Assembly (NCBI GenBank): GCA_964577175.1
Contig: CAZNYC010000001.1
Coordinates: forward strand, 14,851 to 78,850
Direction: 5' to 3'
Source: an uncultured Anaerolineales bacterium
GTDB lineage: Bacteria; Planctomycetota; Phycisphaerae; FEN-1346
Length of the DNA: 64,000 nucleotides
Each line of letters opens with the position of its first letter. Position 1 is the first letter of the stretch. A program made the position numbers and the translations under genes. The notes beneath the pieces were generated by a model, which searched no databases, was not told the DNA's origin, and saw nothing but the letters and a program-made list of their open reading frames with translations. This document shows, in pieces, positions 20,294 through 58,553 of the stretch.

Positions 20294-20390
20294 CGGTGTG
20301 GTCCAGAGACGACTCGCCACGTTCGGGCCTTCCGAACGGCCAGGGCCGGCCGGCGGCGGGCAGTGCAGGACATCCCTTGAGGAGCGCACC

Positions 20391-23300: not shown

Positions 23301-23438
23301 GCCATCCTGGGCTTTCGGCTTCACGCCGACGCGGCGGTCGTCTGCTCGCAGACGACCGAGAACACCGAGTGCATCGGAGCAGCCTGCCCGCTCGCACGCG
23401 TCGGGGCCGCTACAGAGATGGAAGGAGAGACGGCATGA
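20391..23438 (+). CDS. arsM: Fusion protein: radical SAM domain + ArsM-type arsenite S-adenosylmethionine methyltransferase + C-terminal Cys-rich domain
   Basis: GTG at 20391 with GGAG 7 nt upstream, in frame with the listed 20298..23438 ORF. The radical SAM CxxxCxxC is CNMACRHC (LWLHVTNRCNMACRHC). ArsM hallmarks: SYGCGSPV, VDLGSGSGVEC, VVSNCVLNL and GECIAGAL, matching the conserved ArsM Cys residues. The ~300-aa C-terminal region carries many Cys pairs (CACGEP, CMVCAAP, CAYCGE, CDACH, ICGGHCAYMGACG, GRCCQRD). Confidence 0.8.
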   Translation: MPFDLTAWTRLESDGVPVYVQPERPDWFVPNAAADRILQSLAGGTTPDGHIETLRLLDRLPDTPAPAYAGRAERLSLDHLRELWLHVTNRCNMACRHCLFASGPDDAAALPRDRVLAIAREVVDLGCRVFALTGGEPTIHPEFESIVDDLLGLADSTVVVLTNGRALPALAASMDRWPADRVHLQVSLDGLGDRHDRIRGRGAMAELLCNLACLRDGGRPFTLSMCVTGENVADMPGLVRFAADAGATNVHFMWYFVRGRGERDGFVPPDAIFPHLAEAAETAEDVGVGVDNLDALASQAFAPPGTIHDGSTSGWESVAVGPDGRLYPSAALVGMPNLATPLDGGLERAWREGPPLRRLRQRTAAGLDSPLRLLTGGGDPDHSYTAGGTFVGDDPYLPLQERTLLWLIAREASRWPDDGPPAVRLKMGDVLESCGPHGPVATVHNNCLVSVAGTDGRTAVRTFYAEAARNPREDILNPVAYPEDLIAHIPDASRVRSYGCGSPVLEATLAPGDRVVDLGSGSGVECFVASRLVGPDGEVLGVDMLDAMLDLAREGARGVAERLGYANLAFRKAYLEALPLPDDWADVVVSNCVLNLSTHKRRTFAEIHRILKPGGRLVVADVVCETEPDTAIRNDDSLRGECIAGALTQRDLAGLLSESGLVGLRVLKRFPYRTVRGHPFYSLTFEARTAAVSGETARVMYRGPFASVTTCAGTVLPAGRTREVQADEVRGAGDGLLRLDAAGRVTNVAMEASCACGEPEAETPEAPSVPAPTAKHAAGCMVCAAPLVYHDVPRSAACAYCGEKSETAALCEAGHFVCDACHAADALALIERSCLASDETDMATLMERIRRHPAVPMHGPEHHGLVPGVILATARNLGEPVTDEMVRRGIGRGLQICGGHCAYMGACGAALGVGVAFGILLDASPVKGAERRAVQWVVTEALTPIADLEAGRCCQRDAWLALRKAADTSQAILGFRLHADAAVVCSQTTENTECIGAACPLARVGAATEMEGETA

Positions 23439-38609: not shown

Positions 38610-39704
38610 TCAGTCGAACTTGTCGTAGAAGATGGCGTCGGGCGGCAGGCCCTTGTCTTCGAGGACGCGGGTGACGGCCTCGATCATCGGCGGCGGACCG
38701 CAGAGGAACGCCTGCCGCTCGCCCCCCGGCTCGAGGTACTTGTCGACCGAGAGGTGGATGAACCCCGTCTCGCCCTGCCAGTCGGCGTCGTCGGGGCCGG
38801 GTTCGCTCAGGGCGTAGACGACGTGGAAGTTCGGGTGCTTCTCGGCCAGGGCCAGCCACTTCTCGAAGTAGAAGGCGTCGGCGGTGGTGCGGCAGCCGAA
38901 GAAGAACCAGCACGACCGCTCCGGCTGCCGCGCGTATACGGTCTCGATGATGTTCTTGACGGGTGCCATGCCGCAGCCACCCGCCACGCAGACGAGTTCG
39001 ACGTCCGGGTCCTCGTTCAGGCGGAACTCGCCGAACGGGCCGGTGAAGACGACCGGGTCGCCGACCTGGAGGTTATGGAGGTAGGTGGATCCGACGCCGC
39101 CCGGCACCAGCGTGACGACCAGTTCCACGTGCGTCGTGTCGTGGACCGGGGAACTGATCGAATAGGCCCGCCACTGGGGTCCCTCCGGCGAAGGCGCCTG
39201 GACCTGCACGTACTGGCCGGGACGCTGCGCGATCTCGGCCGGCTCGACGAGCCGGAGGCGGATCTCCTTCGTGTCGGGCGTCAGGTCGCGGGTGGACTCG
39301 ACCTCGGCGGAGAAGAGTTGGACGTTGAGGATGTCCTCGGGAATCTGGAGGTCCAGGGCCTCGCGGACCTTGACCTGGCACGCCAGGCGGACCCCCGACC
39401 GCATGTCGCGGCGGGAGAGGAACGGCAGTTCGGTCGGCAGGACCCGGCCGCCGCCCGAGAGCACGCGGACCTTGCAGAAGCCGCACGTGCCCTTCCCGCC
39501 GCAAGCCGACGGGATGTAGATCTCGCCCTCGTTCAGGGTCTGGAGCAGCGTCTGGCCGCCCTCCACCTCCAGGACCCGTTCGCCGGCGTTGATCGAGATC
39601 GGGCAGACGCCGTAGTCCAGCAGGTAGCGTTCCGCGACCACCAGGCCGAGGGCCAGCACCCCCAGCAGGACGCCGACCACCAGGATGCTCCACACGAAGA
39701 TCAT
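38610..39704 (-). CDS. nqrF: Na+-translocating NADH:quinone oxidoreductase subunit F
   Basis: Start MIFVWSILVV (ATG at 39704). N-terminal TM helix. 2Fe-2S ferredoxin motif CGGKGTCGFCKV...C. FAD site RAYSISS. NAD site GGCGMAP. Confidence 0.85.
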   Translation of the reverse strand: MIFVWSILVVGVLLGVLALGLVVAERYLLDYGVCPISINAGERVLEVEGGQTLLQTLNEGEIYIPSACGGKGTCGFCKVRVLSGGGRVLPTELPFLSRRDMRSGVRLACQVKVREALDLQIPEDILNVQLFSAEVESTRDLTPDTKEIRLRLVEPAEIAQRPGQYVQVQAPSPEGPQWRAYSISSPVHDTTHVELVVTLVPGGVGSTYLHNLQVGDPVVFTGPFGEFRLNEDPDVELVCVAGGCGMAPVKNIIETVYARQPERSCWFFFGCRTTADAFYFEKWLALAEKHPNFHVVYALSEPGPDDADWQGETGFIHLSVDKYLEPGGERQAFLCGPPPMIEAVTRVLEDKGLPPDAIFYDKFD

Positions 39705-39709
39705 GTCGC

Positions 39710-40315
39710 TCAGTCCAGCGAAGCCATGCCCATGAATCCCATGAACGCCAGGGCCATGACGCCCGTGACGATCATGACGATCGAGACGCCCCGGAATGCC
39801 GGGGGCAGGTTCGCGTACCCCATCTTCTGCCTGAGGCCCGTCATCAGCGTAATGGCCAGCGCGAACGCCAGGCCCGACCCCAGCCCGTACCACGACGCCT
39901 GCCACAGGCTGTAATCGAAGATGTTGATGGCGAAGAGGCTCGCGCCCAGGATGGCGCAGTTGACGGTAATCAGCGGCAGGAAGATGCCCAGCGAGTAGTA
40001 CAGCGTCGGGCTGAACCGCTCGACCACCATCTCCACCAACTGCACGAACGCCGCAATCACCGCAATGAACACGACGAACTGGAGATGCTCCAGCCCCAGC
40101 GGCACGAGCACCTGGTGATGGATCACGTGGTTCAGGATCGTGGTCGAGGTCATGACGAACGTCACGGCCGCCCCCAGGCCGAGGCTCGTCTCGTACTGCT
40201 TCGAGCATGCCAGGAACGAACACATCCCCAGGAAGTAGACCAGGAGAATGTTGTTCGTGAAGATGGCCGCGAAGAAGATGACCAGCGCGCCGGGGCCGCC
40301 CGTCGGGTCGGTCAT
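39710..40315 (-). CDS. nqrE: Na+-NQR subunit E
   Basis: ATG at 40315 with GGAGG 8 nt upstream. Polytopic NqrE/RnfA-family membrane protein (GMCSFLACSKQ, TVNCAILG). Confidence 0.85.
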   Translation of the reverse strand: MTDPTGGPGALVIFFAAIFTNNILLVYFLGMCSFLACSKQYETSLGLGAAVTFVMTSTTILNHVIHHQVLVPLGLEHLQFVVFIAVIAAFVQLVEMVVERFSPTLYYSLGIFLPLITVNCAILGASLFAINIFDYSLWQASWYGLGSGLAFALAITLMTGLRQKMGYANLPPAFRGVSIVMIVTGVMALAFMGFMGMASLD

Positions 40316-40977
40316 GACTCGCCCTCCGTTTCCTTCTGGAGCCCCAGGGCGTAGAAGAGGGCCACGAGCAGGCCGAGGGCGATGAATCCCCCGGGCGCCA
40401 TCTTCATCACGAGGTTCGGTTCGTAGCCCGGAATCTCCAGCAGGACCCACGACCGGCCGAACAGGATCCGCCCGCTGCCGGCGACCTCGCGCACCAGGCC
40501 GACGGCCGCCAGAACCATCGTGTAGCCCAGCCCGTTGGCCAGGCCGTCGATCAGGCTGTGGTGCGGCCGCTCGTGCAGGGCGTACGCCTCGGCCCGGCCC
40601 ATGATGATGCAGTTGGTGATGATGAGGCCGACGTAGGCGCCGAGGCGTTTCGACATATCCCAGTAAAACGCCTTCAGGAACTGGTCCACCAGGATGACGA
40701 AGGTGGCGATGACGGCGACCTCGACGATCATGCGGATGCGGCGGGGAATCGCCCCGCGCATCACCGAGATCAGCAGGTTCGACATGAGGATGACGAACAC
40801 CACCGCCGCCCCCATGACGAGCGAGTTCTCCAGCCGCGTCGTCACCGCCAGGGCCGAGCAGATGCCCAGCACCTGGATGGCGATGGGGTTGTTCTTCCAG
40901 ACGCCGGCCGTGAACGTCAGGATACCCTTCCGTTCGTCGCCCAGACCGACCGCCGGGTTGGGAGCGTCAGCCGCCAT
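40312..40977 (-). CDS. nqrD: Na+-NQR subunit D
   Basis: NqrD/RnfE family. Overlaps the nqrE start by ATGA. Confidence 0.85.
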   Translation of the reverse strand: MAADAPNPAVGLGDERKGILTFTAGVWKNNPIAIQVLGICSALAVTTRLENSLVMGAAVVFVILMSNLLISVMRGAIPRRIRMIVEVAVIATFVILVDQFLKAFYWDMSKRLGAYVGLIITNCIIMGRAEAYALHERPHHSLIDGLANGLGYTMVLAAVGLVREVAGSGRILFGRSWVLLEIPGYEPNLVMKMAPGGFIALGLLVALFYALGLQKETEGES

Positions 40978-41617
40978 CGCCGCCCTCCGCAGGCACCACC
41001 ACCTCGGCCAGCGTCCGCTCGAGCATCGCCTCGACGCGCTGGCTGGTCATCGTCGCCCCGGTAATCGCCTGGATGTCCAGGTCCACCCGGCCGGCCCGCG
41101 CCGGCACCGGCATGCCGCGGAACTGGTTGCGGAACGCCGGCGTCTCGATCTCCGCCCCCAGGCCGGGCGTTTCGGAATGCTTGTAGAACGTGACGCGGCG
41201 AACGGTCTCCAGGTCCGGCGCCAGGGCCACGAACCCGTCAATCGTCCCCCACAACCCTTTGCCCGTAAACGGGACGGCGACGGCGTCGTCGGTCCAGTAC
41301 GCCGGCCGGCCGGCCAGCGGCCGCTCGCGGACCGACCGCTCGAACCGCTCGAGGATCTCGTCGTTGCTCGCCGGCCGCTCGGTGACCGTGGTGTGGCCAG
41401 TGTCGGGGTCGACACGCTCCGCGCGAACGGTCGTCGGGATGCCGAGCACGCGGAGGATGCTGCGGGCCCGCTCGGCCCGCTGGTTCGCCGCCCGGCGCTC
41501 GGCGGTGATCGCACGGCCGGCCGTCAGCAGCGCGGCGCACGCCACTCCCACCGCCACCGCAAAGCCTACCGTGTACGCCGGTCGCCGTTTCACGCCTCGA
41601 GCCTCCGTGTGCGCCAT
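40967..41617 (-). CDS. nqrC: Na+-NQR subunit C (FMN-binding)
   Basis: ATG at 41617. Single N-terminal TM. Covalent FMN attachment motif TGATMTSQ. Confidence 0.8.
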   Translation of the reverse strand: MAHTEARGVKRRPAYTVGFAVAVGVACAALLTAGRAITAERRAANQRAERARSILRVLGIPTTVRAERVDPDTGHTTVTERPASNDEILERFERSVRERPLAGRPAYWTDDAVAVPFTGKGLWGTIDGFVALAPDLETVRRVTFYKHSETPGLGAEIETPAFRNQFRGMPVPARAGRVDLDIQAITGATMTSQRVEAMLERTLAEVVVPAEGGDGG

Positions 41618-42741
41618 CGAATCACGATTTCGTCGAGCGTCGGGGCCGCAATGTTGCCCAGCAGGATGGCGAACGTCACACCCTCGACGTACCCCGTCAG
41701 GTTCCGGATCAGCACCACCAGGGCGCCGATGAGCAGGCCGTAGAGCAGTTTCGCGGGGTTGGTGATGGGGCTGCTCACCGGATCGGTCGCCATGTAGACC
41801 GTCCCGAAGAGGAACCCGCCTGCGAAGAGGTGCCAGCCCACCGGGCCGAACGTCGCGGGCGCGGCCGCGTGCAGCACCGCGCCCAGCACCAGGAAACCGC
41901 CGATCGCCCCGCCGACCGTCCGCCACGGCACCACGCCCACCAGCACCAGGAACGCCGCGCCCAGAAGGATGCAGACGGCACTCGTTTCGCCGATGCATCC
42001 CGCGATATGGCCCCAGACGAGGTTCGCCACCGGCTCCGCCTCTTCGTAGAACGCCTCGGGCGCCTCCAGGGCCGCCTTGGCCTCCACGAGCGGCGTCGCC
42101 ATGGTGACGGCGTCGACGGCCGAATCGGCGGTCTGCCCGGCTGCGGCTGTGGCATCGCCGTACGACGCCGGCGCGACGGCGTACTCCAGCAGCCGGCCCG
42201 GCCAGGCGGTCTTCGGCTCGATCCACGCGCCCATCCCCGTCGGGTACCCGACCGTCAGGATACACCGGCCGAGCAGGGCCGGGTTGAACAGGTTCCGCCC
42301 CGTCCCGCCGAAGATTTCTTTGCCGAGGATCACGCCGGCGGCCACGCCGACCGCCACCATCCACAGGGGAATGCCGGGCGGCAGGGCCAAGGGAAAGATG
42401 AGGCCCGTCACGAGGAACCCCTCGTTGATCTCCTCCCGCCGCACGCACGCGAAGAGGACCTCGATTATGCCGCCCACCACGTACGAGACGAGAATCACCG
42501 CCAGCACCCGCAGACCGAACAGGTACACCCCCGCCAGCAGCGGCGGCACAAGCCCGATCACCACCATCGACATGTAGCGTTTGACGTCGAGCGGGTCGCG
42601 GACCCAGGGCGGTGTGTCCGGGGCGGTGTCCGGCCAAAGGTGAAACGCCTCGATGGCGTCGAACAGCGGCCGGAAAAACCGCAGCGGCGGGCGCTCGAAG
42701 CGCGGCCGCAGCCGCTCGAAGAGACGCTCCACGACCTTCAT
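41590..42741 (-). CDS. nqrB: Na+-NQR subunit B
   Basis: 383 aa, polytopic NqrB/RnfD family. Confidence 0.85.
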   Translation of the reverse strand: MKVVERLFERLRPRFERPPLRFFRPLFDAIEAFHLWPDTAPDTPPWVRDPLDVKRYMSMVVIGLVPPLLAGVYLFGLRVLAVILVSYVVGGIIEVLFACVRREEINEGFLVTGLIFPLALPPGIPLWMVAVGVAAGVILGKEIFGGTGRNLFNPALLGRCILTVGYPTGMGAWIEPKTAWPGRLLEYAVAPASYGDATAAAGQTADSAVDAVTMATPLVEAKAALEAPEAFYEEAEPVANLVWGHIAGCIGETSAVCILLGAAFLVLVGVVPWRTVGGAIGGFLVLGAVLHAAAPATFGPVGWHLFAGGFLFGTVYMATDPVSSPITNPAKLLYGLLIGALVVLIRNLTGYVEGVTFAILLGNIAAPTLDEIVIRWRTRRLEA

Positions 42742-44129
42742 GAGGCGGCTCCTTCCTGGGCGTCCGCCTTGGCAGCGGCCGCCGCAGCCGCCTCCGCCGC
42801 CTCCTTCCGTTCCTCCGCCAGATCCTGCTGGGCCTCCAGGAACTGGGCGCGGAGTTCAATCTTCGACGGGCACACGTACGAACACAGCCCGCACCCGACG
42901 CACAGGTCCACGCCTAGCCGCTCGGCATTGTCGAGCGAGCCCTGGTAAAGATACTTGTGGATCATGTGCGGCATGATGCCCGCCGGGCACACCTTCTCGC
43001 ACAGGCCGCAGGCGATGCACGCCCGCCGCTCACCGCGGAGGGCCGTCGGCATCCGTTCCGGAAACGCCCGGCGAAGCCGCGACAGGAACGTGCGGCTGTA
43101 GGACTGGCGGGACACGCCAGGACGGATCCATCCGAACAGTTGCGGCCCCGGCATCGGCGACAGGGCGGTCAGCCCCGGGCACCCGAGGGGCAGCCCCCGG
43201 ACGCCGTCGCCTGCCATCGCGCCGGTCATGGCGCCGCCCAGGATCAGCCGCGCGCCCTCCTCGACTTCCGTCGACCGGATCGGCTCCAGGGGATAGCCCG
43301 CCGGCAGCCGCAGGTGCCGCGGGCGCTTCGCCGCCGGGCCGCCCACCGTCGTCAGGACGTCCAGCGTCGGCCGGGAATGCGTCAGGGCCCGGTCGACCGC
43401 CAGGACGCCCTCCGTCCGCAGGGCCCACACCGGTGGCCCGCCGGCCTCCAGGTCCAGCCCCCGGGCAATCAGGGCGAAAACGTCCATCGGGTACCGCAAT
43501 GGAATCGTCACGATCTGAAGAAACGCGTGGCCGCGGAGTTGCTCGTGCACCTCCTCGGCCAGGGCCGACTCCACGTCCGGCATGACGAGGTAGATCGGCT
43601 GATACTCGAGCAGCCCCTGGATCCGCTCCAATCCCCGGCTGAACGCCTCCAGGCCGGACCGCAGCATCGCCTCGCCGCGGACGCCGAACGGCTCCAGCCG
43701 CACCGTCGAGACGATGACCGCGCTCGGTTCCGCCGCCGGGTCCGGCACGGCCCCCGTGTGGGCGTCCTCGAAGAAGCACCACGCCCCAAGGTTCACGAGG
43801 CTTTGACGCGGGTCCGGCGCGGGCGGCCCTTCCTCACCCTGCTCCCCCGGGGGTACCACGTCCTCCAGGACGACGTGGCCTTGGCGGGCCTCCAGCCGGA
43901 CGGTCCCGCTGCGCGGGGCGAGGAGCGGCACCTCGAAGTGCACCGGGTCGCGTGCGAGCACCTCCCCGGCCCGTACGGACTGCCCGTCGCCGATGGCCGG
44001 CTCCGTAAACGCCAGCCGCCCGCTCTCGACGGGCAGAAAGAGGGCGTCCGGCTCGGGAAGCGTCTCGGTCGTCGCCGCCGGCCGGCCCGCCAGCGGCACG
44101 TTGTATCCACCATGACGTTTCAGATGCAT
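42738..44129 (-). CDS. nqrA: Na+-NQR subunit A homolog retaining two RnfC-type 4Fe-4S ferredoxin motifs
   Basis: NqrA/RnfC N-terminal domain (MHLKRHGGYNVPLAGRP). NqrA-like LFGWIRPG...RTFLSRL. The C-terminus has CIACGLCEKVCP and CVGCGLCSYVCP; canonical NqrA has only degenerate remnants of these. No GGAGFPT NADH/FMN site. Confidence 0.75.
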   Translation of the reverse strand: MHLKRHGGYNVPLAGRPAATTETLPEPDALFLPVESGRLAFTEPAIGDGQSVRAGEVLARDPVHFEVPLLAPRSGTVRLEARQGHVVLEDVVPPGEQGEEGPPAPDPRQSLVNLGAWCFFEDAHTGAVPDPAAEPSAVIVSTVRLEPFGVRGEAMLRSGLEAFSRGLERIQGLLEYQPIYLVMPDVESALAEEVHEQLRGHAFLQIVTIPLRYPMDVFALIARGLDLEAGGPPVWALRTEGVLAVDRALTHSRPTLDVLTTVGGPAAKRPRHLRLPAGYPLEPIRSTEVEEGARLILGGAMTGAMAGDGVRGLPLGCPGLTALSPMPGPQLFGWIRPGVSRQSYSRTFLSRLRRAFPERMPTALRGERRACIACGLCEKVCPAGIMPHMIHKYLYQGSLDNAERLGVDLCVGCGLCSYVCPSKIELRAQFLEAQQDLAEERKEAAEAAAAAAAKADAQEGAAS

Positions 44130-44515: not shown

Positions 44516-44570
44516 CGCCGCGCACGAGGCCGCGTGGTCGTGTTAAAGGGTGCGAGCCGGGAGGCGAACC

Positions 44571-47500
44571 GTGAACGCGTACACTCGGATCGTTCTTTGC
44601 GCCGTCACACTCGTCGGCGTGCTTCTTGCCGGCGTGACGGCTGCGGCCGCCGACGACGGCCCCTGGTGGCGATCCCACCTCGACGCCCCCATCCTCTTTG
44701 CCAAGCGCCATTCGTACGTCGGGATTCACATTTACGATACGTACTACAAGTGGAAGCCGGGCGGTGGCCTGTACGTGCTCGAGAACCCGGCCGACCCGCC
44801 GGCCGAGCACCGTGTCCGGCCCGTCATCGACCCGACCACCTCCGAGACCCTCGGCGAGGGCATTTACAGCGATCCCGAACTCTCCTGGGACGCCCGGCGC
44901 GTGCTTTTCTGCTTCAAGGGCGAACCGACGGGCTCCACCAGCATCTACGAGATCGGCGTGGACGGTACGGGCCTTCGCCGCCTCACGAATCCCGCGCCCC
45001 ACTGTGCCGACTACAAGGGCCGCGGCGGCGGCGTCCACGACGTGGCCCCGGCGTACCTGCCCGACGGTCGCATCGTCTTTCTCTCCTCGCGTCCCAGCGG
45101 CCTCGTGCCGTGCAACAACACGGGCGTGGCGATTCTGCACGTCATGAACGCCGACGGGGCCGACATCCACCCCATTTCGGTGAACAACGTCAACGAGTTC
45201 GATCCCGTGCCGCTGCCCGACGGCCGCATCCTCTTCGGCCGATGGGAGTACATCGACAAGACCGCCCTGACGATTCAGAGCCTGTGGACGGTCTTCCCCG
45301 ATGGCACGAACGAGACGGCCCTGTTCGCGAACAACATGGTCTTTCCCGAGGCGCTGCTCGACGGCCGGCCCGTGCCGGGATCGATGCACCTGGTGGCGGC
45401 AACGCTGGCGCCGCACAACTCCCCGCCGCGAGGGAGTGTGGGCATCGTGAATCCGCTTCTCGGCAAAAACGCCCCCGGCGCGATTACCAACTTCGAGCAC
45501 CCCGACAAGCCCACCCACGACCACGGCAACTCGTGCGAGCCCTGGCCGCTCGCCGAGGACGTTATCCTTTTCAGCGGCCGGCCGACGGGCGCTGCGTTCA
45601 ACGCCATCGAGATCGCCCGCCGCGACGGTCGCCGCCGCCTCGTCCACGCCGAACCGGACATCTGCTGCCACTCGCCCATACCCGTGCGGGCGCGGCCCTG
45701 CCCGCCGGCCATCCCCGACGCGACGGACCGCACGAAGCGGACCGGCCGCTTCTACGTCCAGGACATCCACGAGGGCCTCGACGGCGTCGCCCCCGGCGAG
45801 GTCACGCACCTGCGGATCATCGAAGAGACGTCCCGCACGAGCCCCAGCCCCGGCGGCGCGATGAACCAGACGTTCCTCGTGTCCGGCGTGCTGGCCTGGA
45901 GCGCGAAGAACATCCTCGGTGTCGTCGACGTGGCCGAGGACGGGTCCGCCTACTTCGAGGCCCCCGCCGGCCGGGCCCTGTACCTGCAGGCCCTGGACGC
46001 CGACCGACGCCTGGTGCGCAGCATGCGGACGTTTATCCAGGCTGCCCCGGGCGTCACGCGTTCCTGCATCGGCTGCCACGAGCACAAGTACTCGAGCCCC
46101 GCGAACCTCGGCGACCGCCGGGCTTTCCGCCGTCCGCCCGAGAAGCCCCGCCCCGAATCCTGGGGCAGCGGCTTCATCGACTACCCGAGCATGATTCAGC
46201 CCGTCTTCGACCGGCACTGCCTCGGGTGCCATGGCGGCGAGAAGGGCCTGGCGGCGCGGCTCGACCTCTCCGGGGGATGGACCCGGTACTTCACCATCAG
46301 TTACGAGAACCTCGCGGGGCGCCGTCGGAGCCAGGTGTGGGCCGACCTTATCGCCGCCATCGATTGCATGAACGGGACGAGCCGGTACTCGGCCCGGATA
46401 TTCGATCCGCGAGGGCACGGCTCAGGTGCGGCTCCGCTGGCGGACGTGCTCGTCGGCGGGCACGAGGAACGCATTCCCCGCCTCACTCGCCGCGAGCGCG
46501 ATCTCGTCCTCGCCTGGATCGACACCAATGGCCTGTACCATGGCACGTGGGACTACTCCGAGCACGGGCCGAGCCTCAAGGCCTGGAACGGCATCAAGGC
46601 GGCGGTCCTTGCCGAGATGCGCGACGCCGGCTGTATGCGGTGCCACGGCAAGAACGGGAAGCCCGCGCGGTTCGAGAACGACTGGATCAACCTCAGGCGG
46701 CCCCCGTTCAGCCGGGTGCTTCGGGCGCCGCTCGCGAAGGAGGCCGACGGCGGCTACGGCCTGGCCCTCTGCCGCCGGCGCGACGTCGATCCGAACGGAT
46801 GGCGCAGCCGCATCATGGTCCTCGGCGGATACCAACATGCCGTCAAGCCGGTGGAGCAGTTCGAGAGGCGCCCCGCGCCGGAGCCCGAGCCGGATGCCGG
46901 ACCCGCGGTCACGTTCCAATCCACGAACGACCCGCACTACCGGTCGCTGCTGGCGGCGATTCGCCGCGGACGCCGGCAGGCCCTCGCCGCCCCGCGCGTC
47001 GACATGCCGGGCGCCGAGGCCGTCGCCGGCTCTCATCGGCAGCGGTATCCGCAGCCCCTGCCCGATCCCCTGCCCCCTCTCGAGGCGCGGACCGACGACA
47101 ATGCCGTCGTCCACCTGGCGTGGGAGCGTTCCGCCCGAACGATCGGTCTCTCGGCCGAGGTCCACCGCGGCCTGGGACCGGATTTCACGCCCACCGACGA
47201 GACCCGCCTCGCCGCGACCGGCCTCTTCCATTACGCGGACGCGTCGGCGTCGCCCGGTCCCCAGCATTACGCCGTGGTGCTCGTCTCGGCCGAGGCGAGG
47301 AGTCGCCCGATGCGGGCCCGCGTGGAGGTACCGTCGCCGGCGCCGCCCCGCGCCCCCACGGACCTGACCGCCGAGTCCGAACCCGGCCGGGTGGTCCTCC
47401 GCTGGCACGGCGCCTCGGACCCGCACGTGGGGTATACGGTCCACCGCGCCCCCGCGGGGTCCGACGCATTCGAACGGCTGACACCCGAACCGACGGCGGC

Positions 47501-48278
47501 GTGGGAGTTCGCAGACGTGTCGGCACGGTCCGACGCGACCGCCCGCTACACCGTGCGGGCCGTCAGCCGGCGGGGCGCTGTGAGTGCACCGGCAACGGCC
47601 GTCGAAGCCAAGGCCCTGCCGGAGATCCGCCAGCCCGTCTTCGTGGCCGACTTCGCCGCCGGACCCGACGCTTCCGACCTTGCGGGCAAGACCGTCCCCG
47701 CTCGCCTGCAAGGCAAGGCCCGCGTCACGGAGGGGACGCTGGATCTGCGCCAGGGCGGTCACGTCACGTATCCCCATCGCGACGCCTTCGACCTCGCGAA
47801 GCGGTTCTCCGTAGAATGCCGGGTCCGCTTCGAGAAGGCAGGCACGATGCCCGTGGTCGTCAGTTGCGGCCAGTGGAACCAGGCAGGCTGGTTCCTCCAA
47901 CGCTTCGGCGGCGGGTGGCGGTGGCACGTGGGCGGCATCGACTGCGACGGCGGCCAGCCCGTCCTCGGCCGTTGGACCCACCTCGTCGGCACCTACGACG
48001 GGACGACCGCCCGCCTGTACCAGGACGGCCGCCTTGTGGCGAAGCGCGACGGCATTGCCGTTACCACGCCCTGGAAAGGGCCCCTGCACGTCGGCCAGTA
48101 CAGCGGTGGGCCGGCGGACTCCTACCAGGTGACGGGGCAGGTGAAGGACGTGCGGATCTACAGCCGGGCCCTCGCACCCGCCGAGGTGGGCCGGACAGGG
48201 AACGTTACCCGCCGGCCCTTGGTCCCGGCGGCCGGTGCCGGGCCGGTGTTTTCAGCGCCGAGGCCCCATCCGGGATAA
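44571..48278 (+). CDS. Secreted multi-domain protein: TolB-like beta-propeller + three CxxCH heme-c motifs + fibronectin-III + LamG/ConA-like lectin domain
   Basis: GTG at 44571 with GGGAGG 7 nt upstream; the listed ORF start at 44550 is less well supported. Signal peptide. WD40/TolB-like repeats (IYEIGVDGTGLRRLT, DGRIVFLSSR). Heme motifs CIGCHE, CLGCHG and CMRCHG. FN3 (VVLRWHGASDPHVGYTVHRA). LamG motif (KDVRIYSRAL). Confidence 0.7.
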   Translation: MNAYTRIVLCAVTLVGVLLAGVTAAAADDGPWWRSHLDAPILFAKRHSYVGIHIYDTYYKWKPGGGLYVLENPADPPAEHRVRPVIDPTTSETLGEGIYSDPELSWDARRVLFCFKGEPTGSTSIYEIGVDGTGLRRLTNPAPHCADYKGRGGGVHDVAPAYLPDGRIVFLSSRPSGLVPCNNTGVAILHVMNADGADIHPISVNNVNEFDPVPLPDGRILFGRWEYIDKTALTIQSLWTVFPDGTNETALFANNMVFPEALLDGRPVPGSMHLVAATLAPHNSPPRGSVGIVNPLLGKNAPGAITNFEHPDKPTHDHGNSCEPWPLAEDVILFSGRPTGAAFNAIEIARRDGRRRLVHAEPDICCHSPIPVRARPCPPAIPDATDRTKRTGRFYVQDIHEGLDGVAPGEVTHLRIIEETSRTSPSPGGAMNQTFLVSGVLAWSAKNILGVVDVAEDGSAYFEAPAGRALYLQALDADRRLVRSMRTFIQAAPGVTRSCIGCHEHKYSSPANLGDRRAFRRPPEKPRPESWGSGFIDYPSMIQPVFDRHCLGCHGGEKGLAARLDLSGGWTRYFTISYENLAGRRRSQVWADLIAAIDCMNGTSRYSARIFDPRGHGSGAAPLADVLVGGHEERIPRLTRRERDLVLAWIDTNGLYHGTWDYSEHGPSLKAWNGIKAAVLAEMRDAGCMRCHGKNGKPARFENDWINLRRPPFSRVLRAPLAKEADGGYGLALCRRRDVDPNGWRSRIMVLGGYQHAVKPVEQFERRPAPEPEPDAGPAVTFQSTNDPHYRSLLAAIRRGRRQALAAPRVDMPGAEAVAGSHRQRYPQPLPDPLPPLEARTDDNAVVHLAWERSARTIGLSAEVHRGLGPDFTPTDETRLAATGLFHYADASASPGPQHYAVVLVSAEARSRPMRARVEVPSPAPPRAPTDLTAESEPGRVVLRWHGASDPHVGYTVHRAPAGSDAFERLTPEPTAAWEFADVSARSDATARYTVRAVSRRGAVSAPATAVEAKALPEIRQPVFVADFAAGPDASDLAGKTVPARLQGKARVTEGTLDLRQGGHVTYPHRDAFDLAKRFSVECRVRFEKAGTMPVVVSCGQWNQAGWFLQRFGGGWRWHVGGIDCDGGQPVLGRWTHLVGTYDGTTARLYQDGRLVAKRDGIAVTTPWKGPLHVGQYSGGPADSYQVTGQVKDVRIYSRALAPAEVGRTGNVTRRPLVPAAGAGPVFSAPRPHPG

Positions 48279-51513: not shown

Positions 51514-53499
51514 CTACTGCTGCCTTCCCTCGATGAGGGTATCCACGATGGTGGGATCCGCCAGCGTACTCGTATCGCCCAGGGTGCCCTTGTCGGTGAC
51601 GCCCTCGGCGATCTTGCGGAGGATCCGCCGCATGATCTTGCCGGAGCGCGTCTTCGGCAGCGCCGGGGCGAACTGGAGCCGGTCGGGCGTCGCGATCGGG
51701 CCGATCTCCTTCCGCACGTGCTTCACGAGTTCGTCTCGCAACTCGTCGGACGGCTCCACGCTCTCGACCAGCGTCACGAAGGCGTAGAGGCCCTGCCCCT
51801 TGATGTCGTGCGGCATGGGGGCGACGGCGGCCTCGGCCACCTTGTCGTGGCTCACCAGGGCGCTCTCGACCTCGGCCGTTCCGATCCGGTGACCGGACAC
51901 GTTCACGACGTCGTCGATGCGGCCCATGAGCCAGTAGTCGCCGTCCTCGTCGATGCGGCAGCCGTCGCCGGTGAAGTACAGATCATTATACATGTTGAAG
52001 TAGACGTCGATGAAGCGGTCGTGGTCGCCCCAGGTGGTCCGCATCATGGAAGGCCAGGGCTTCTTGATGCACAGTTTGCCGCCCTCGTTCACGTCGCACT
52101 CGGTGCCGTCGTCGCGCAGGACGATGGGCTCGACGCCGAAGAACGGCCGGTTGGCGCTGCCGGGCTTCAGGGTATGGGCACCGGGGAGCGGCGTGATGAG
52201 GATGCCGCCCGTCTCCGTCTGCCACCAGGTATCGACGATGGGCCGCTGGCCCTTGCCCACCTTCTCGTAGTACCACATCCACGCCTCGGGGTTGATGGGT
52301 TCGCCCACGGAGCCGAGGACGCGGAGGCTCGACATGTCGTACTTGGCCGGCCACTGGTCGCCCTGGCGGATGAGGGCACGGATCGCCGTCGGCGCCGTGT
52401 AGAACTGGGTGACCTTGAACTTGTCGATCATCTGCCAGTACCGGCCGGCGTCCGGGTAGAGGGGCGTGGACTCGAACATGACGCTCGTGGCCCCGTTGGC
52501 CAGCGGGCCGTACACGATGTAACTGTGGCCGGTAACCCACCCGATGTCCGCCGCACAGCAATAGACGTCCTCTTCCTTGACGTCAAAGATGAGTTTATGC
52601 GTCATCGCCGTGTACAGCAGGTACCCGCCGGTCGTATGGACGACGCCCTTCGGCTTGCCGGTGGACCCGGAGGTATAGAGGATGTAGAGGGTGTCCTCGG
52701 CATTCATCGCCTCGGCTTCGCAGTCGGCGGAGGCGTCGGCCATGACGGCGTCGTAGGCGAGGTCGCGGCCGTCCTGCATCGGGGCGTCTTCGTCGGTCCG
52801 ACCGACCACGATCACCTTTTCGATCGAGGGCGTCTGCTCGAGCGCCTCGTCGGCTATTTTTTTCAGTGGGATGCTCTTCCCCGCACGGCGCGACACGTTC
52901 GCCGTGATCAGGACCTTGCAGTCGGAGTCGTTGATGCGGTCGCGCAGGGCATCGGCGCTGAAGCCGCCGAACACCACCGAGTGGATGGCACCGATCCGCG
53001 TGCAGGCCAGCATGACGACCGGCAGTTCCGGAACCATGCCCAGGTACACGCACACGCGGTCGCCCTTCTCCACGCCGAGCGACTTCAGGACGTTGGCGAA
53101 CTTGCAGACCTCTTCGTGGAGTTCCTTGTACGTGATGGTCTTGTCTTCGTCGGGCTCGTCGCCCTGCCAGATGAGGGCGGCCTTGTTCTCGCGCTCCGTC
53201 CCCAGATGCCGGTCCAGACAGTTGTACGACACGTTCAGTTCGCCGTCGGCGAACCACGTATGGGAGACGTTGCGGCCTTCGGTGTCCCACGTGTACTGGC
53301 GGGCCTTGGTCGGCTTCTTAAACCAGTCGAGCATCTCGGCCTGTTCGAGCCAGAAGGCGTCCGGGTCGTTGATCGACCGGTCGTACATCTCCTGGTACTC
53401 GTCAAAGGACCCGATGTACGCCTTCTCCGCGATGTCGGCCGGCGGCGGGAACGTCCGCTTCTCCGACATGAACGATTCCATCCCTTTGTCTTGAGCCAT
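51514..53499 (-). CDS. acs: Acetyl-CoA synthetase (AMP-forming)
   Basis: 661 aa. Canonical Acs N-terminus ([34 protein letters not shown]) and AMP-binding motifs ([11 protein letters not shown]). ATG at 53499 with AAAGGAG upstream; the ATG 10 codons downstream (MSEK) is also possible. Confidence 0.85.
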
Positions 53500-55220: not shown

Positions 55221-56357
55221 ATGGCACAGACACGAGCGGCGTTTCTACACTCGCCCCAGATCGAACGGTACCACTACCCTCCCGACTGCCCGTTCAAGAC
55301 CGAGCGGGCGGGCATGACCCGCGGCATTCTGGACCGCATGGGGCTGCTCTCGGGCCCGGACCGGGCGGAGGTCGGCTTCGAGGCCGCCCCGCGCGAGGTG
55401 CTCGAGCGGTTCCACACCGCCCGCTACCTCGACGCCATGCAGCGCACCGCCGCCGGCGACCTGGACGTGGCCGCACTCGGCATGGGCTTCGGCCAACCGG
55501 AGGTGCCGGTTTTCCGCGAGATGTACGACTACGCCGCCCTCGCCTGCGGGGCCACCCTCCGCGGGGCCGACCTCCTCCTGGACAACGAGGCCGAGGTGGT
55601 CTTCAACCCCTCGGGCGGGTACCATCATGCCGGGCCCGAACTGGCCGCCGGCTTCTGCTACATGAACGACGTGGCCCTCGGGTGCCTGCGGCTCGCCGAC
55701 CGGCTCGACCGCGTCCTGTTCCTCGACGTCGACGTCCATCACGGCGACGGCGTGCAGGATTTCTTCTACGGCCGGGCCGACGTCATGACGATGTCGTTCC
55801 ACGAGACAGGGGACGAACTTTTCCCCGGCACGGGGTATCCGAAGGACGCCGGCACGGGCGACGGGCGGGGCTACAGCGTGAACGTCCCCCTGCCTCCCGG
55901 CACGTACGACGCGGCCTTCCGGCGGGCGTTCGAGGCGGTCGCCCCGCCGCTGGTGGAGGCGTTCGACCCGCAAGCCATCGTCTTCGAGGTGGGGGTGGAC
56001 GGCCTCGCGGGCGATCCCCTGGCGGACCTGGCGCTGACGAACAACCTGTACGCCGACCTCGCGCAGCAGGTCGTGGGCTTCGGCCGGCCGCTTCTTGCGA
56101 CCGGCGGCGGGGGGTACCATCCGGAGAACACCGCGCGGGCGTGGGCCCTGGTGTGGAGCGTCCTCGTCGGCGAGCACAAACACGATACGATGCAGGTGGG
56201 GCTGGGCGGCGTGATGCTCGAATCGACGGACTGGCAGGGCGGCCTGCGGGACCGGAACCTCGTGACCCCCCGCGAGCAGCGCGAGGCCGTGGAGCCCGCC
56301 GTCGACCGCATCATCCAGGAGGTCCGCACCCACGTGTTTCCGCTGCACGGACTTTAA
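55221..56357 (+). CDS. acuC: Histone-deacetylase-family Zn-dependent deacetylase (acetoin utilization AcuC-like protein lysine deacetylase)
   Basis: HDAC motifs SGGYHHA, DVDVHHGDG and FHETGDELFPGTG. Confidence 0.8.
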   Translation: MAQTRAAFLHSPQIERYHYPPDCPFKTERAGMTRGILDRMGLLSGPDRAEVGFEAAPREVLERFHTARYLDAMQRTAAGDLDVAALGMGFGQPEVPVFREMYDYAALACGATLRGADLLLDNEAEVVFNPSGGYHHAGPELAAGFCYMNDVALGCLRLADRLDRVLFLDVDVHHGDGVQDFFYGRADVMTMSFHETGDELFPGTGYPKDAGTGDGRGYSVNVPLPPGTYDAAFRRAFEAVAPPLVEAFDPQAIVFEVGVDGLAGDPLADLALTNNLYADLAQQVVGFGRPLLATGGGGYHPENTARAWALVWSVLVGEHKHDTMQVGLGGVMLESTDWQGGLRDRNLVTPREQREAVEPAVDRIIQEVRTHVFPLHGL

Positions 56358-56360
56358 GCC

Positions 56361-58490
56361 ATGGAAGACCCGCGCGACACCACGAGCATCGACCGGCTGT
56401 TCACCCCCTCGTCGGTGGCGGTGGTGGGCGCCTCGCGCCAGGAGGGCAAGACCGGCCACGAGATTCTCATCAGCCTCATCCGCGGCGGGTTCGAGGGCGA
56501 CATCTACCCCGTCAACCCGAAGGCCGACGAGATCGAGGGCCTGACCTGTTACCACGACCTTTCGGCCATCGAGCCGGCGCCGGACCTCGTCGTCGTCGTC
56601 GTGCCGAAAGGGCACGTCAAGTCCGTCATCGAGCGGGCGGCACGGCGGGGGACGAAGGCGGCCATCATCATCACGGCCGGCTTCAAGGAGTCGGGTGAGG
56701 AAGGCGAGCGGCTGGAGCGCGAGATCGTCCGGACGGCCCGGCGGGCCGGCATGCGCCTCGTCGGCCCGAACTGCCTGGGCATCATGGTGCCTGGACGGAA
56801 ACTGAACGCCTCGTTCGGCGGGGAGTTGCCGGCGGCGGGGGCCATCGGGTACTTCTCGCAATCCGGCTCCCTGCTGGCCTCGATCGTCGACATGGCCCGG
56901 GCCGAGGGCATCGGCTTCAGCAAGTGCATCAGCATCGGCAACAAGGCCGACATCGACGAACTCGACATCCTCCGCTACTTCGGCCGCGACGACGAGACCC
57001 GCGTCATCGCCGGCTACCTGGAGACCATCGCCGACGGCGACGCGTTCGTGCGGGAGGCGGAACGCATCTCGCGCGACAAGCCGATCCTCCTGATGAAGGC
57101 CGGCGAGACGGGCGCCGGCCGCGAGGCCGCCTCCAGCCACACCGGCCGCCTCGCCGGCACGCAGCAGGCGTACGAGGTGGTGTTCGAGCGGTCGGGCATC
57201 CTCCGGTGCGAGTCGATCCTGGCCCAGTTCGATTACGCCCGGGCCCTGGCCGAGGCGCCCCTGCCCGCCGGCCGCAGCGTCGCCGTCATCGCCAATGCGG
57301 GCGGGCCCGGCATCATGGCCGCCGACGCCCTCGAGGACGAAGGCCTCACCCTCGCGCCCCTCAGCGACGAGACGCAGACCGCCCTGGCCGAGCAGGTGCC
57401 CGGGGCGGCGAACGTCGCCAACCCCATCGACGTGCTCGGCGACGCCCTCGCCGCCACGTACGAGGCGGCGCTGCGGCTGGCGTTGGCCGATGAGAACGTC
57501 CACGCGGTGCTGGCCATCCTCTCGCCGCACGCCATGACCGAATGCGACGCCACCGCCGAGGCGATCGTCCGGGCCGCCCGCCAGAACGGCGAGAAGCCCG
57601 TCGTGGCGTGCTTCCTGGGCGCCGGCCGGGTGAAGCAGGCCGTCCGGACGCTGCGCGAGGGCGGCATCCCGCAGTACCCGTCGCCGGAAAGCGCCGTGCG
57701 GGCCCTGCGCGTCATGGCCAAGTACCAGCGATGGAAGAACCGCCCCAAGCGGGTCGTCAAACTCTTCCCGGTCAACCGGCGTAAGGTGGAGCAGATCATC
57801 GGCCGGGCCCTGCGGCGGGGCCAGACCGAGATTCCCGAGACCGACGCCAGCGATATCCTGGAGGCGTACGGCTTCGTGACGCCGCGCGGCCAGGTGGCCA
57901 CCAGCGCCGAACAGGCCGCCAACCTCGCCGACCAGATCGGCTACCCCGTGGTCCTGAAGATCTGGTCGCCGGACATCCTCCACAAGACGGAGGTGGACGG
58001 CGTGAAGGCGGGCCTGGCGGGCCGGCAGGAGGTCATGGACGCCTTCGACCTCATGATGTACCGCATCCCGAAGAAGCGGCCGGAGGCCGACATCCTGGGG
58101 TGCCTCGTGCAGGAAACCGTCTCGGGCGGCACGGAGGTGTACCTGGGGATGCAGCGGGACCCGCGGTTCGGCCCGCTCATGATGTTCGGCATGGGCGGCA
58201 TCATGGTGGAGTTGCTGAAGGACGTGGCGTTCCACCTGGCGCCGCTGACGGCCGAGGAGGCCCGCGAGATGCTCGCCTCCACGCGCACGTACCAGTTGCT
58301 GGGCGGCGGCGAGAAGGGCGAGCGCCCGCGCGTCGACCTCGACGCCCTGGCCGAGGGGCTCCAACGCCTCAGCCAACTGGTGACGGAGTTCCCGCAGATT
58401 CAGGAGATGGACATCAATCCGTACGTGGTGGGGCCGGAGGGCACCAAGCCCGTCGCCGTCGACGCCCGCATCACCGTGGCCGAGGCGTAG
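56361..58490 (+). CDS. NDP-forming acyl-CoA synthetase-like protein (ACD; CoA-binding + CoA-ligase + ATP-grasp; Pat N-terminal-domain-like)
   Basis: 709 aa. CoA-binding N-terminus (VAVVGASRQEGKTGH). SucD-like domain. ATP-grasp C-terminus (GYPVVLKIWSPDILHKTEVDGV). Starts 4 nt after the acuC stop. Confidence 0.75.
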   Translation: MEDPRDTTSIDRLFTPSSVAVVGASRQEGKTGHEILISLIRGGFEGDIYPVNPKADEIEGLTCYHDLSAIEPAPDLVVVVVPKGHVKSVIERAARRGTKAAIIITAGFKESGEEGERLEREIVRTARRAGMRLVGPNCLGIMVPGRKLNASFGGELPAAGAIGYFSQSGSLLASIVDMARAEGIGFSKCISIGNKADIDELDILRYFGRDDETRVIAGYLETIADGDAFVREAERISRDKPILLMKAGETGAGREAASSHTGRLAGTQQAYEVVFERSGILRCESILAQFDYARALAEAPLPAGRSVAVIANAGGPGIMAADALEDEGLTLAPLSDETQTALAEQVPGAANVANPIDVLGDALAATYEAALRLALADENVHAVLAILSPHAMTECDATAEAIVRAARQNGEKPVVACFLGAGRVKQAVRTLREGGIPQYPSPESAVRALRVMAKYQRWKNRPKRVVKLFPVNRRKVEQIIGRALRRGQTEIPETDASDILEAYGFVTPRGQVATSAEQAANLADQIGYPVVLKIWSPDILHKTEVDGVKAGLAGRQEVMDAFDLMMYRIPKKRPEADILGCLVQETVSGGTEVYLGMQRDPRFGPLMMFGMGGIMVELLKDVAFHLAPLTAEEAREMLASTRTYQLLGGGEKGERPRVDLDALAEGLQRLSQLVTEFPQIQEMDINPYVVGPEGTKPVAVDARITVAEA

Positions 58491-58553
58491 GGCACCGGCG
58501 CCACATTGAGCCGCCGGGCTTGCCCGGCGCGTGCCGTAAGCAAGGGACTTCCC

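Follow-up and report, generated by a model that had tools for sequence, protein, structure and literature searches.

To our knowledge, NqrA is the only subunit of NQR (an NADH:quinone oxidoreductase that translocates Na+) to which no function has been assigned. The protein is described as free of cofactors or as having lost them (Reyes-Prieto et al. 2014, PMC4014512; Vitt et al. 2022, PMC9588780; Kumar et al. 2025, PMC11889175; 2025 review, PMC12174285), and the structural papers together with the 2025 review (PMC12174285) regard it as a descendant of RnfC that was stripped of its flavin mononucleotide (FMN) and of both its clusters. In the related RNF (Rhodobacter nitrogen fixation) complex, the cofactors are lined up from the riboflavin of RnfD through cluster C1 and cluster C2 to FMN and NAD+ (PMC11889175). 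The origin of NQR has been placed in the Bacteroidota, and the menaquinone-reducing Bacteroidota-type NQR has been proposed to be evolutionarily older (PMC12174285). Here, we examined an nqr operon in a 64-kb stretch of Phycisphaerae DNA (contig CAZNYC010000001.1), hereafter the window, to whose full length all gene coordinates refer. The A subunit of this operon carries all eight ligand cysteines of the two RnfC clusters, and relatives of the same kind occur in many phyla. No description of a cluster-bearing NqrA was found in the full-text literature; most subscription journals lie outside that coverage, and an earlier mention is possible. Papers describing genomes of Margulisbacteria, Cloacimonadota, and sulfate reducers label such operons plain NQR, and eight-cysteine sequences are already public under automatic annotation.

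The nqrA-like gene (42738–44129, minus strand) starts with ATG and encodes 463 amino acids, in which Pfam recognized NQRA_2nd and a Fer4 dicluster domain. As a preliminary description of this DNA had claimed, the translated open reading frame (ORF) contains two complete RnfC-type [4Fe-4S] motifs, CIACGLCEKVCP (C371, C374, C377, and C381; residues 371–382; 42984–43019, minus strand) and CVGCGLCSYVCP (C410, C413, C416, and C420; residues 410–421; 42867–42902, minus strand), both located in a ferredoxin-like domain at residues ~365–428 (42846–43037, minus strand). The Pfam dicluster models Fer4_10, Fer4_8, and Fer4_9 matched residues 367–424 above their gathering scores (E 4.5e-9 to 1e-7), and the two CxxCxxCxxxCP motifs conform to the pattern of bacterial-type 2×[4Fe-4S] ferredoxins, in which two such motifs lie ~30–40 residues apart. 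A phmmer search of the PDB aligned residues 369–446 without gaps onto both motifs of Azotobacter vinelandii RnfC (8ahx_C) and residues 367–430 onto the motifs of Clostridium tetanomorphum RnfC (7zc6_C). The C-terminal domain thus shares both motifs with RnfC in exact register and with equal spacing, and the positional homology to the RnfC ferredoxin domain was borne out. In Vibrio cholerae NqrA (7xk3_A), by contrast, the eight cysteine columns hold M, I, Y, M at motif 1 and D or L, L, C, C at motif 2, so that only the last two of the eight ligands present in the window protein are retained. Of the two Vibrio remnants named in the preliminary description, FVCPGKYE mapped as stated, whereas LCAGDSDSA did not correspond to motif 1 but aligned to the helix between the motifs (YLYQGSLDNA in the window protein); the remnant of motif 1 in Vibrio NqrA is MVPIGNYEKVMP.

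Residues ~108–150 of the window protein (43680–43808, minus strand) hold a degenerate remnant of the FMN/NADH-binding loops of RnfC. Column-wise alignment to Escherichia coli RsxC paired GLGGAGFPT with DAHTGAVP and NAAECEPY with STVRLEPF, a decay resembling that of V. cholerae NqrA, in which these loops are likewise lost. Unlike RnfC, the window protein therefore lacks the GxGGAxFPT/NAAECEPY flavin/NAD loop, and Pfam gave no match to Complex1_51K, the NuoF-type FMN domain; the proposed loss of the NADH/FMN site agrees with both results. The best NCBIfam model was that of NqrA (NF003761, 152 bits over residues 4–437, with a cut-off of 450), and the NCBIfam RnfC models matched the C-terminal ~90 residues only. 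Similarly, the best PDB match was V. cholerae NqrA (7xk3_A, E 1e-21, residues 108–431), and RnfC of A. vinelandii (8ahx_C, E 6e-16), C. tetanomorphum, and Acetobacterium woodii was also matched. An AlphaFold2 model (predicted local distance difference test score of 83, predicted template modeling score of 0.83), weak only at the N terminus and at residues 329–368, gave roughly equal Foldseek template modeling (TM) scores, of 0.74–0.78 to NqrA and of 0.68–0.75 to RnfC (8ahx_C, 7zc6_C, A. woodii 9eri_C, and E. coli RsxC). The Fe-S domain is the best-conserved region, being 41–56% identical to that of distant eight-cysteine homologues versus 16–24% for the middle domains; its identity to V. cholerae NqrA is 34% (middle domains, 19%) and to true RnfC 33–39%. 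As judged from the alignments and the model, the window A subunit combines an NqrA-like front with an RnfC-like back, and its ferredoxin domain most likely binds two [4Fe-4S] clusters.

Five further genes follow on the minus strand, namely nqrB (41590–42741, 383 amino acids; Pfam NQR2_RnfD_RnfE, E 4e-94; V. cholerae NqrB, E 1e-59), nqrC (40967–41617, 216 amino acids, with the start codon chosen among candidates; Pfam FMN_bind, best match TIGR01938 nqrC), nqrD (40312–40977, 221 amino acids; NF006777 NqrD, 240 bits versus a cut-off of 235), nqrE (39710–40315, 201 amino acids; Pfam Rnf-Nqr, with the nqrE and rnfA models tied at ~206 bits), and nqrF (38610–39704, 364 amino acids; Pfam Fer2, FAD_binding_6, and NAD_binding_1; TIGR01941, 263 bits versus 295). 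The nqrA stop and the nqrB start overlap by 4 nucleotides (nt), and all neighbors in the order nqrA-B-C-D-E-F overlap or sit at most 5 nt apart. The same six genes in the same order make up the V. cholerae Na+-NQR (PDB 7xk3, 8a1u). Also as in that enzyme, NqrF consists of a transmembrane anchor, a plant-type 2Fe-2S domain (Fer2), and an FNR-like domain for flavin adenine dinucleotide (FAD) and NADH, in which RAYSISS and GGCGMAP are present. The translations likewise contain the covalent-FMN threonine motifs of NqrB (DAVTMATPL) and NqrC (TGATMTS) and the cysteine pairs of the intramembrane 2Fe-2S cluster in NqrD (GICSAL/TNCIIM) and NqrE (GMCSFL/VNCAIL). The best PDB match of NqrF was V. cholerae NqrF (E 5e-60, over residues 6–172 and 200–363), whose FAD domain is ~40 residues longer. 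Unlike in RNF, the soluble partner is NqrF and not RnfB, and the membrane partner resembles NqrB and not RnfD. No RnfB was found in the operon or the window, where tblastn with E. coli RsxB matched only the NqrA Fe-S domain. The remaining window genes are unrelated to the nqr operon.

NqrB was then aligned with V. cholerae NqrB (7xk3_B, whose numbering is used here) and with E. coli RsxD. Residues with roles in quinone and riboflavin binding are known, and in cryo-EM structures the N-terminal amphipathic helix of NqrB shuts over the quinone (PMC10643135). Window NqrB keeps T162, G198, N200, N203, A205, and D346 of the riboflavin site and G140/G141, N156, and F159 of the quinone site, together with E144; F160 is replaced by L and F342 by Y. 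In the N-terminal helix, L26 and A29 are kept and L33 is F, as in Pseudomonas aeruginosa. The Vibrio insertion at residues 84–128 is absent. The N-terminal extension, the GG pair, and NEGF are missing from E. coli RsxD, whereas all Fe-S-type NqrB sequences examined carry the quinone-site, riboflavin-site, and N-terminal helix features. The genuine NqrF, the lack of RnfB in the window, and the NQR-type helix and GG/NEGF residues of NqrB uphold the earlier assignment of the operon to NQR and not to RNF. That it is otherwise a canonical nqrABCDEF operon holds for the six genes and their order but not for their scores, as NqrD alone cleared its NCBIfam equivalog cut-off (240/235), and the other five of the six subunits stayed below theirs (A, 152/450; B, 322/414; C, 104/144; E, 206/248; F, 263/295). 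By these scores, which set it apart from V. cholerae NQR, the window operon is a divergent NQR lineage. As read from its genes, all architectural tests identify it as an NQR, with two exceptions, the cofactor-free state of NqrA and the equivalog cut-offs.

The eight-cysteine A subunit is not peculiar to the window gene but a trait of a very large multi-phylum family. A search of 5.8 billion proteins returned 773 matches, of which the top 120 were all 450–490 amino acids long and all had Fer4 dicluster domains; the top matches are named NqrA by JGI but "4Fe-4S dicluster domain-containing protein" by NCBI, and the latter name, with the addition [Phycisphaerae bacterium], is also carried by a mate of the window protein in its 90%-identity cluster. 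When 1.84 billion cluster representatives were searched exhaustively with HMMER, 4239 of them matched at E ≤ 1e-3. Among the best 150 of these, both motifs occurred in 113 of the 117 full-length proteins, and the strict GxGG[AGS]x[FY]P loop occurred in none of the 117. Both motifs remained intact down to 27% identity. The eight cysteines were invariant in all 32 homologues aligned (48–87% identity) and were all kept in 142 sequences of a 246-sequence alignment, whose members reach down to ~25% identity; their conservation is therefore far beyond chance, and a chance occurrence of the motifs was rejected. Relatives turned up in at least 547 species genomes when one genome per species was scanned, a number that counts Fe-S forms by construction because the search patterns included the cysteine motifs. 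The best 80 loci among these genomes, to which all locus counts below refer, belong to Planctomycetota, Eisenbacteria, Spirochaetota, Verrucomicrobiota/Lentisphaerota, and Desulfobacterota, and eight-cysteine relatives also occur in Margulisbacteria and Riflebacteria. In essentially every locus that was long enough, B, C, D, and E genes and an NqrF homologue stood behind the A gene. An NqrA-like profile recruited canonical NqrA of Bacteroidota, with the cysteine pattern xxxx/xxCC and devoid of a Fer4 domain, and also further eight-cysteine proteins scoring strongly on NQRA_N and NQRA_2nd, such as those of Marinamargulisbacteria.

The surroundings of the operon were also compared. Unlike in V. 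cholerae, neither apbE, the flavin transferase gene, nor nqrM adjoins the window operon, and no apbE was found within the 64-kb window. Among the 80 Fe-S-type loci, apbE adjoins the operon in only one, and RnfB does not adjoin it in 79. The nqr operons fetched from Bacteroidales (L090), Riflebacteria, and Marinamargulisbacteria terminate with apbE, and the eight-cysteine genes of the latter two sit within textbook nqrABCDEF-apbE operons. When the flanking ORFs of the 80 loci were clustered, no conserved soluble redox partner gene was found next to the operon, and the window flanks shared nothing with these ORFs. A polyprenyl-diphosphate synthase gene near the operon in 11 of the loci weakly favors a link to quinone. 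A histidine kinase/response regulator pair is a recurrent neighbor (17–20 loci), and an ORF of ~150–180 amino acids with no assigned function is conserved directly after nqrF in 14 loci of Eisenbacteria and Planctomycetota (L039:14566–15108 and equivalents) and is absent from the window.

To place the window protein, two neighbor-joining trees were built, one of 178 A/C-type proteins (300 columns, rooted on three RnfC sequences, 60 bootstraps) and one of concatenated B+D+E proteins from 29 operons (747 columns, rooted on E. coli Rsx, 200 bootstraps). An RnfC profile (E. coli RsxC plus PDB-derived fragments) recovered enteric RsxC only, and the outgroups therefore stay few. In the A tree, eight-cysteine proteins form the basal grade, and the cofactor-free NqrA of Vibrio and Bacteroidota form one clade nested among eight-cysteine lineages, a topology that did not change after removal of the Fe-S domain columns. 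The window protein fell inside the canonical clade in none of the 60 replicates, and in each of them 2–42 eight-cysteine taxa stood nearer to canonical NqrA than the window protein did; a median of 7 (minimum of 1) sister lineages consisting entirely of eight-cysteine proteins separated the root from the canonical clade. In the B+D+E tree, KSB1 is the basal lineage (100%), Desulfocapsaceae comes next (84%), and then come two clades of 100% each. The first unites the cofactor-free Bacteroidota with Marinamargulisbacteria, Riflebacteria, and Desulfobacteraceae, all eight-cysteine, and the second, in which all members have eight cysteines, contains Spirochaetota, Victivallales, Pirellulaceae, Eisenbacteria, and Phycisphaerae including the window. 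At least two eight-cysteine lineages lay below the canonical clade in 200 of 200 replicates. Because canonical NqrA is nested within eight-cysteine lineages in both trees, the eight-cysteine form appears ancestral to it; with the polarity read from neighbor-joining alone and few outgroups, and with the clade holding the canonical forms weakly resolved inside (~20% support), the trees support the view that cofactor-free NqrA is a derived branch and the eight-cysteine form a widespread, ancestral-looking form of NQR. The idea that the window protein is an intermediate, having lost the flavin site but kept both clusters, gains support from this nesting. The Bacteroidota enzymes, such as that of Segatella (Prevotella) bryantii, are like the window system NQRs of anaerobes; unlike window NqrA, their NqrA is already cofactor-free (cysteine pattern FTYx/VxCC) and is derived relative to the eight-cysteine form in the trees.

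Homologues that keep only one motif were found as well (P0228, P0268, P0271, P0273, P0274, P0279, P0283, and P0284; e.g., CCCC/HTLC and FTYC/CCCC), and they occupy at least three to four separate positions in the tree. This pattern indicates that the clusters were lost stepwise and repeatedly in NqrA lineages, with one-motif loss being independent in at least three or four of them.

Other architectures on the Rnf/Nqr core were seen at the base of these trees. The KSB1 metagenome-assembled genome (MAG) carries, next to V-type ATPase genes, the order B-C-D-E-unknown (164 amino acids)-A/C-like-NqrF (L089:3359–11213). Its A/C-like protein (P0216) has the eight cysteines, a near-RnfC flavin loop (GGGKGGFPT, NAIETDPY), and a Complex1_51K match, and its last gene is a true NqrF orthologue with 44% identity to window NqrF. 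As the KSB1 lineage is basal in both the A and the B+D+E trees, its architecture may represent a still earlier stage from RNF to NQR. A regular-expression reading in which all basal clades were flavin-less was rejected, since inspection of the columns revealed the near-RnfC loop of the KSB1-type protein. In a Desulfocapsaceae MAG (CAXXRX010000002.1, L070:13400–16875; also L067 and L068), an eight-cysteine nqrA-B-C-D-E set occurs without an FNR-type NqrF. The sixth gene encodes a transmembrane anchor, Fer2, and a NuoE-like thioredoxin-like 2Fe-2S domain, and it is followed by a NuoF-like gene (Complex1_51K, NADH_4Fe-4S, and two Fer4 domains) and then by a gene resembling the N terminus of NuoG (Fer2_4 and 2×4Fe-4S). 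By domain content, this NuoE/F-like set adds a third kind of NADH input module to those that the Rnf/Nqr core can carry. In the Logan contig of SRR11308170 (L085:148–4278), whose protein P0232 belongs to a basal eight-cysteine clade, A/C-like and B/D-like genes come first and are followed by genes for a 312-amino-acid protein with Fer2 and FeS (PF04060, RnfB-N-terminal-like) and a 199-amino-acid Fer2 protein.

With modest confidence, we favor the view that the window operon encodes a NADH:(mena)quinone pump of an older NQR architecture, in which the NqrA clusters would serve as a redox-connected buffer or auxiliary branch by the NqrB riboflavin. Following the V. cholerae enzyme, electrons would pass from NADH to the FAD and then the 2Fe-2S cluster of NqrF, to the 2Fe-2S cluster of NqrD/E, to the FMN of NqrC, to the FMN and then the riboflavin of NqrB, and finally to quinone at the NqrB rim; this flow would drive cation export, for which we infer the pumped ion. 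NADH:quinone oxidoreduction with cation export is the probable core reaction because NqrB keeps its quinone and riboflavin residues and its N-terminal helix, which RsxD lacks. Because the lineages are anaerobic and menaquinone-reducing NQR is regarded as the older type (PMC12174285), menaquinone is the probable quinone. Since the FMN pocket is gone while the clusters are homologous to the C1/C2 line of RnfC, the clusters would form a short side branch that starts at the riboflavin of NqrB, at a distance that we likewise infer. In our view, they would be real and redox connected, would buffer one or two electrons or serve as an auxiliary branch near riboflavin and quinone, and would not be the main exit.

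Several points weigh against this view of the clusters and of the overall reaction. The typical potentials of [4Fe-4S] clusters lie far below the riboflavin/quinone end of V. cholerae NQR, and a buffer role would therefore require unusually tuned potentials. The whole two-cluster chain is strictly conserved though it ends in a lost flavin pocket, which suggests a continuing acceptor or donor of electrons at that end. Since five of the six subunits score below their equivalog cut-offs, the enzyme may be specific for other substrates than Vibrio NQR is. Finally, the low-confidence residues 329–368 of the AlphaFold2 model directly precede the Fe-S domain.

The first alternative to the buffer or side-branch role, which we hold to be doubtful but credible, is that the clusters are a true exit or entry. 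As an exit, the NqrA clusters would pass electrons from riboflavin on to an acceptor in the cytoplasm that is neither NAD+ nor quinone, for instance a ferredoxin-like, rubredoxin-like, or sulfur-metabolism protein; as an entry, they would take in electrons from reduced ferredoxin. In both cases, the pump would have a new substrate pair. The two-cluster chain is strictly conserved over at least six phyla despite loss of the flavin it served. Moreover, input modules swap freely (NqrF in the window, the NuoE/NuoF-like set in Desulfocapsaceae, and NqrF plus an RnfC-like protein with a near-intact loop in KSB1), implying that the specificity of the soluble end is evolutionarily labile. However, NqrB retains the quinone-site residues and the helix that closes over quinone, no gene for a soluble redox partner is conserved beside the operon in the 80 loci, and the eight-cysteine operons of Riflebacteria and Marinamargulisbacteria are otherwise textbook.

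Alternatively, the clusters could be bound but redox silent, being kept for the stability of the ferredoxin fold and for clamping NqrA to NqrB, which we consider unlikely. Some enzymes retain off-pathway clusters. Canonical NqrA keeps the same domain, clusterless, as a structural element on NqrB (PMC12174285, PMC9588780), the domain is relatively conserved even in V. cholerae, as its identity given above indicates, and several lineages in which exactly one motif was lost retain the operon, so that a broken chain is tolerated. Nevertheless, with a purely structural role, replacement by hydrophobic residues would be expected often, as in Vibrio and Bacteroidota, yet 142 sequences keep all eight cysteines.

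A more far-reaching reading is rather improbable. In it, the eight-cysteine systems would be a distinct class of Rnf/Nqr pump, in which NqrF electrons leave, or low-potential electrons enter, via the NqrA clusters to or from a cytoplasmic partner, with a new substrate pair that is neither ferredoxin:NAD+ nor plain NADH:quinone. The origin of NQR would then lie outside the Bacteroidota, in a living series from KSB1 through the NuoEF form and Fe-S NqrA to cofactor-free NqrA.

Recent re-acquisition, in which a cofactor-free NqrA would have regained its ferredoxin domain from RnfC via recombination, is very improbable and was rejected. The restriction of the NCBIfam RnfC matches to the C-terminal ~90 residues is what a domain swap would give; yet the Fe-S domain is nearer to that of the eight-cysteine NqrA-type proteins (41–56%) than to true RnfC (33–39%), which argues against re-acquisition, and the A tree is equally nested without the Fe-S columns. 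The B+D+E tree, which is free of A sequences, agrees with it, the clade of canonical and eight-cysteine forms having 100% support and two or more eight-cysteine lineages lying below the canonical clade in 200 of 200 replicates. That the operon is an RNF (ferredoxin:NAD+) misread as NQR can be practically dismissed, since, although NqrE scores equally on the rnfA and nqrE models and B, C, and D also match Rnf models at lower scores, RnfB is missing from the operon and the window, an NqrF orthologue stands in sixth place, the A subunit lacks the NAD(H)/FMN site on which RNF chemistry depends, and NqrB has NQR-specific features.

By its sequence record, the eight-cysteine type is the common NQR of many uncultured anaerobic lineages and looks ancestral. 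The nqr operons that retain the cluster motifs, a large set from multiple phyla, provide a living series of RNF-to-NQR intermediates, and the order of events, i.e., recruitment of NqrF, then loss of the flavin site, and then loss of the clusters, becomes testable. Eight-cysteine systems open the role of the A subunit to spectroscopy and mutagenesis, and the extra clusters could alter the energetics or the acceptor of the enzyme. Under the NCBI label "4Fe-4S dicluster domain-containing protein," NQR is missed in many anaerobe genomes.

Outside the operon, several other window genes were recorded. On the strand opposite to nqrA and just upstream of it, a gene for 1242 amino acids (44550–48278, plus strand) encodes a hydrazine-synthase-alpha middle domain, CxxCH cytochrome c motifs, and a Laminin_G_3 domain; no link of this protein to nqr was seen. 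A single ORF of 5765 amino acids (107–17404, plus strand) with FG-GAP, RTX calcium-binding, PKD, LRR, MAM-like, and dockerin domains encodes a giant secreted or surface protein, and a 1046-amino-acid fusion (20298–23438, plus strand) joins radical-SAM, class I methyltransferase, and DUF5714 domains. Three acetyl-CoA/acetate enzymes lie close together (56361–60431, plus strand, and 51514–53499, minus strand), namely an AMP-forming acetyl-CoA synthetase, an ADP-forming acetyl-CoA synthetase (ATP-grasp_5/Succ_CoA_lig), and an acetyl-CoA hydrolase/transferase-GNAT fusion, and a gene of the histone-deacetylase family is located at 55221–56357.

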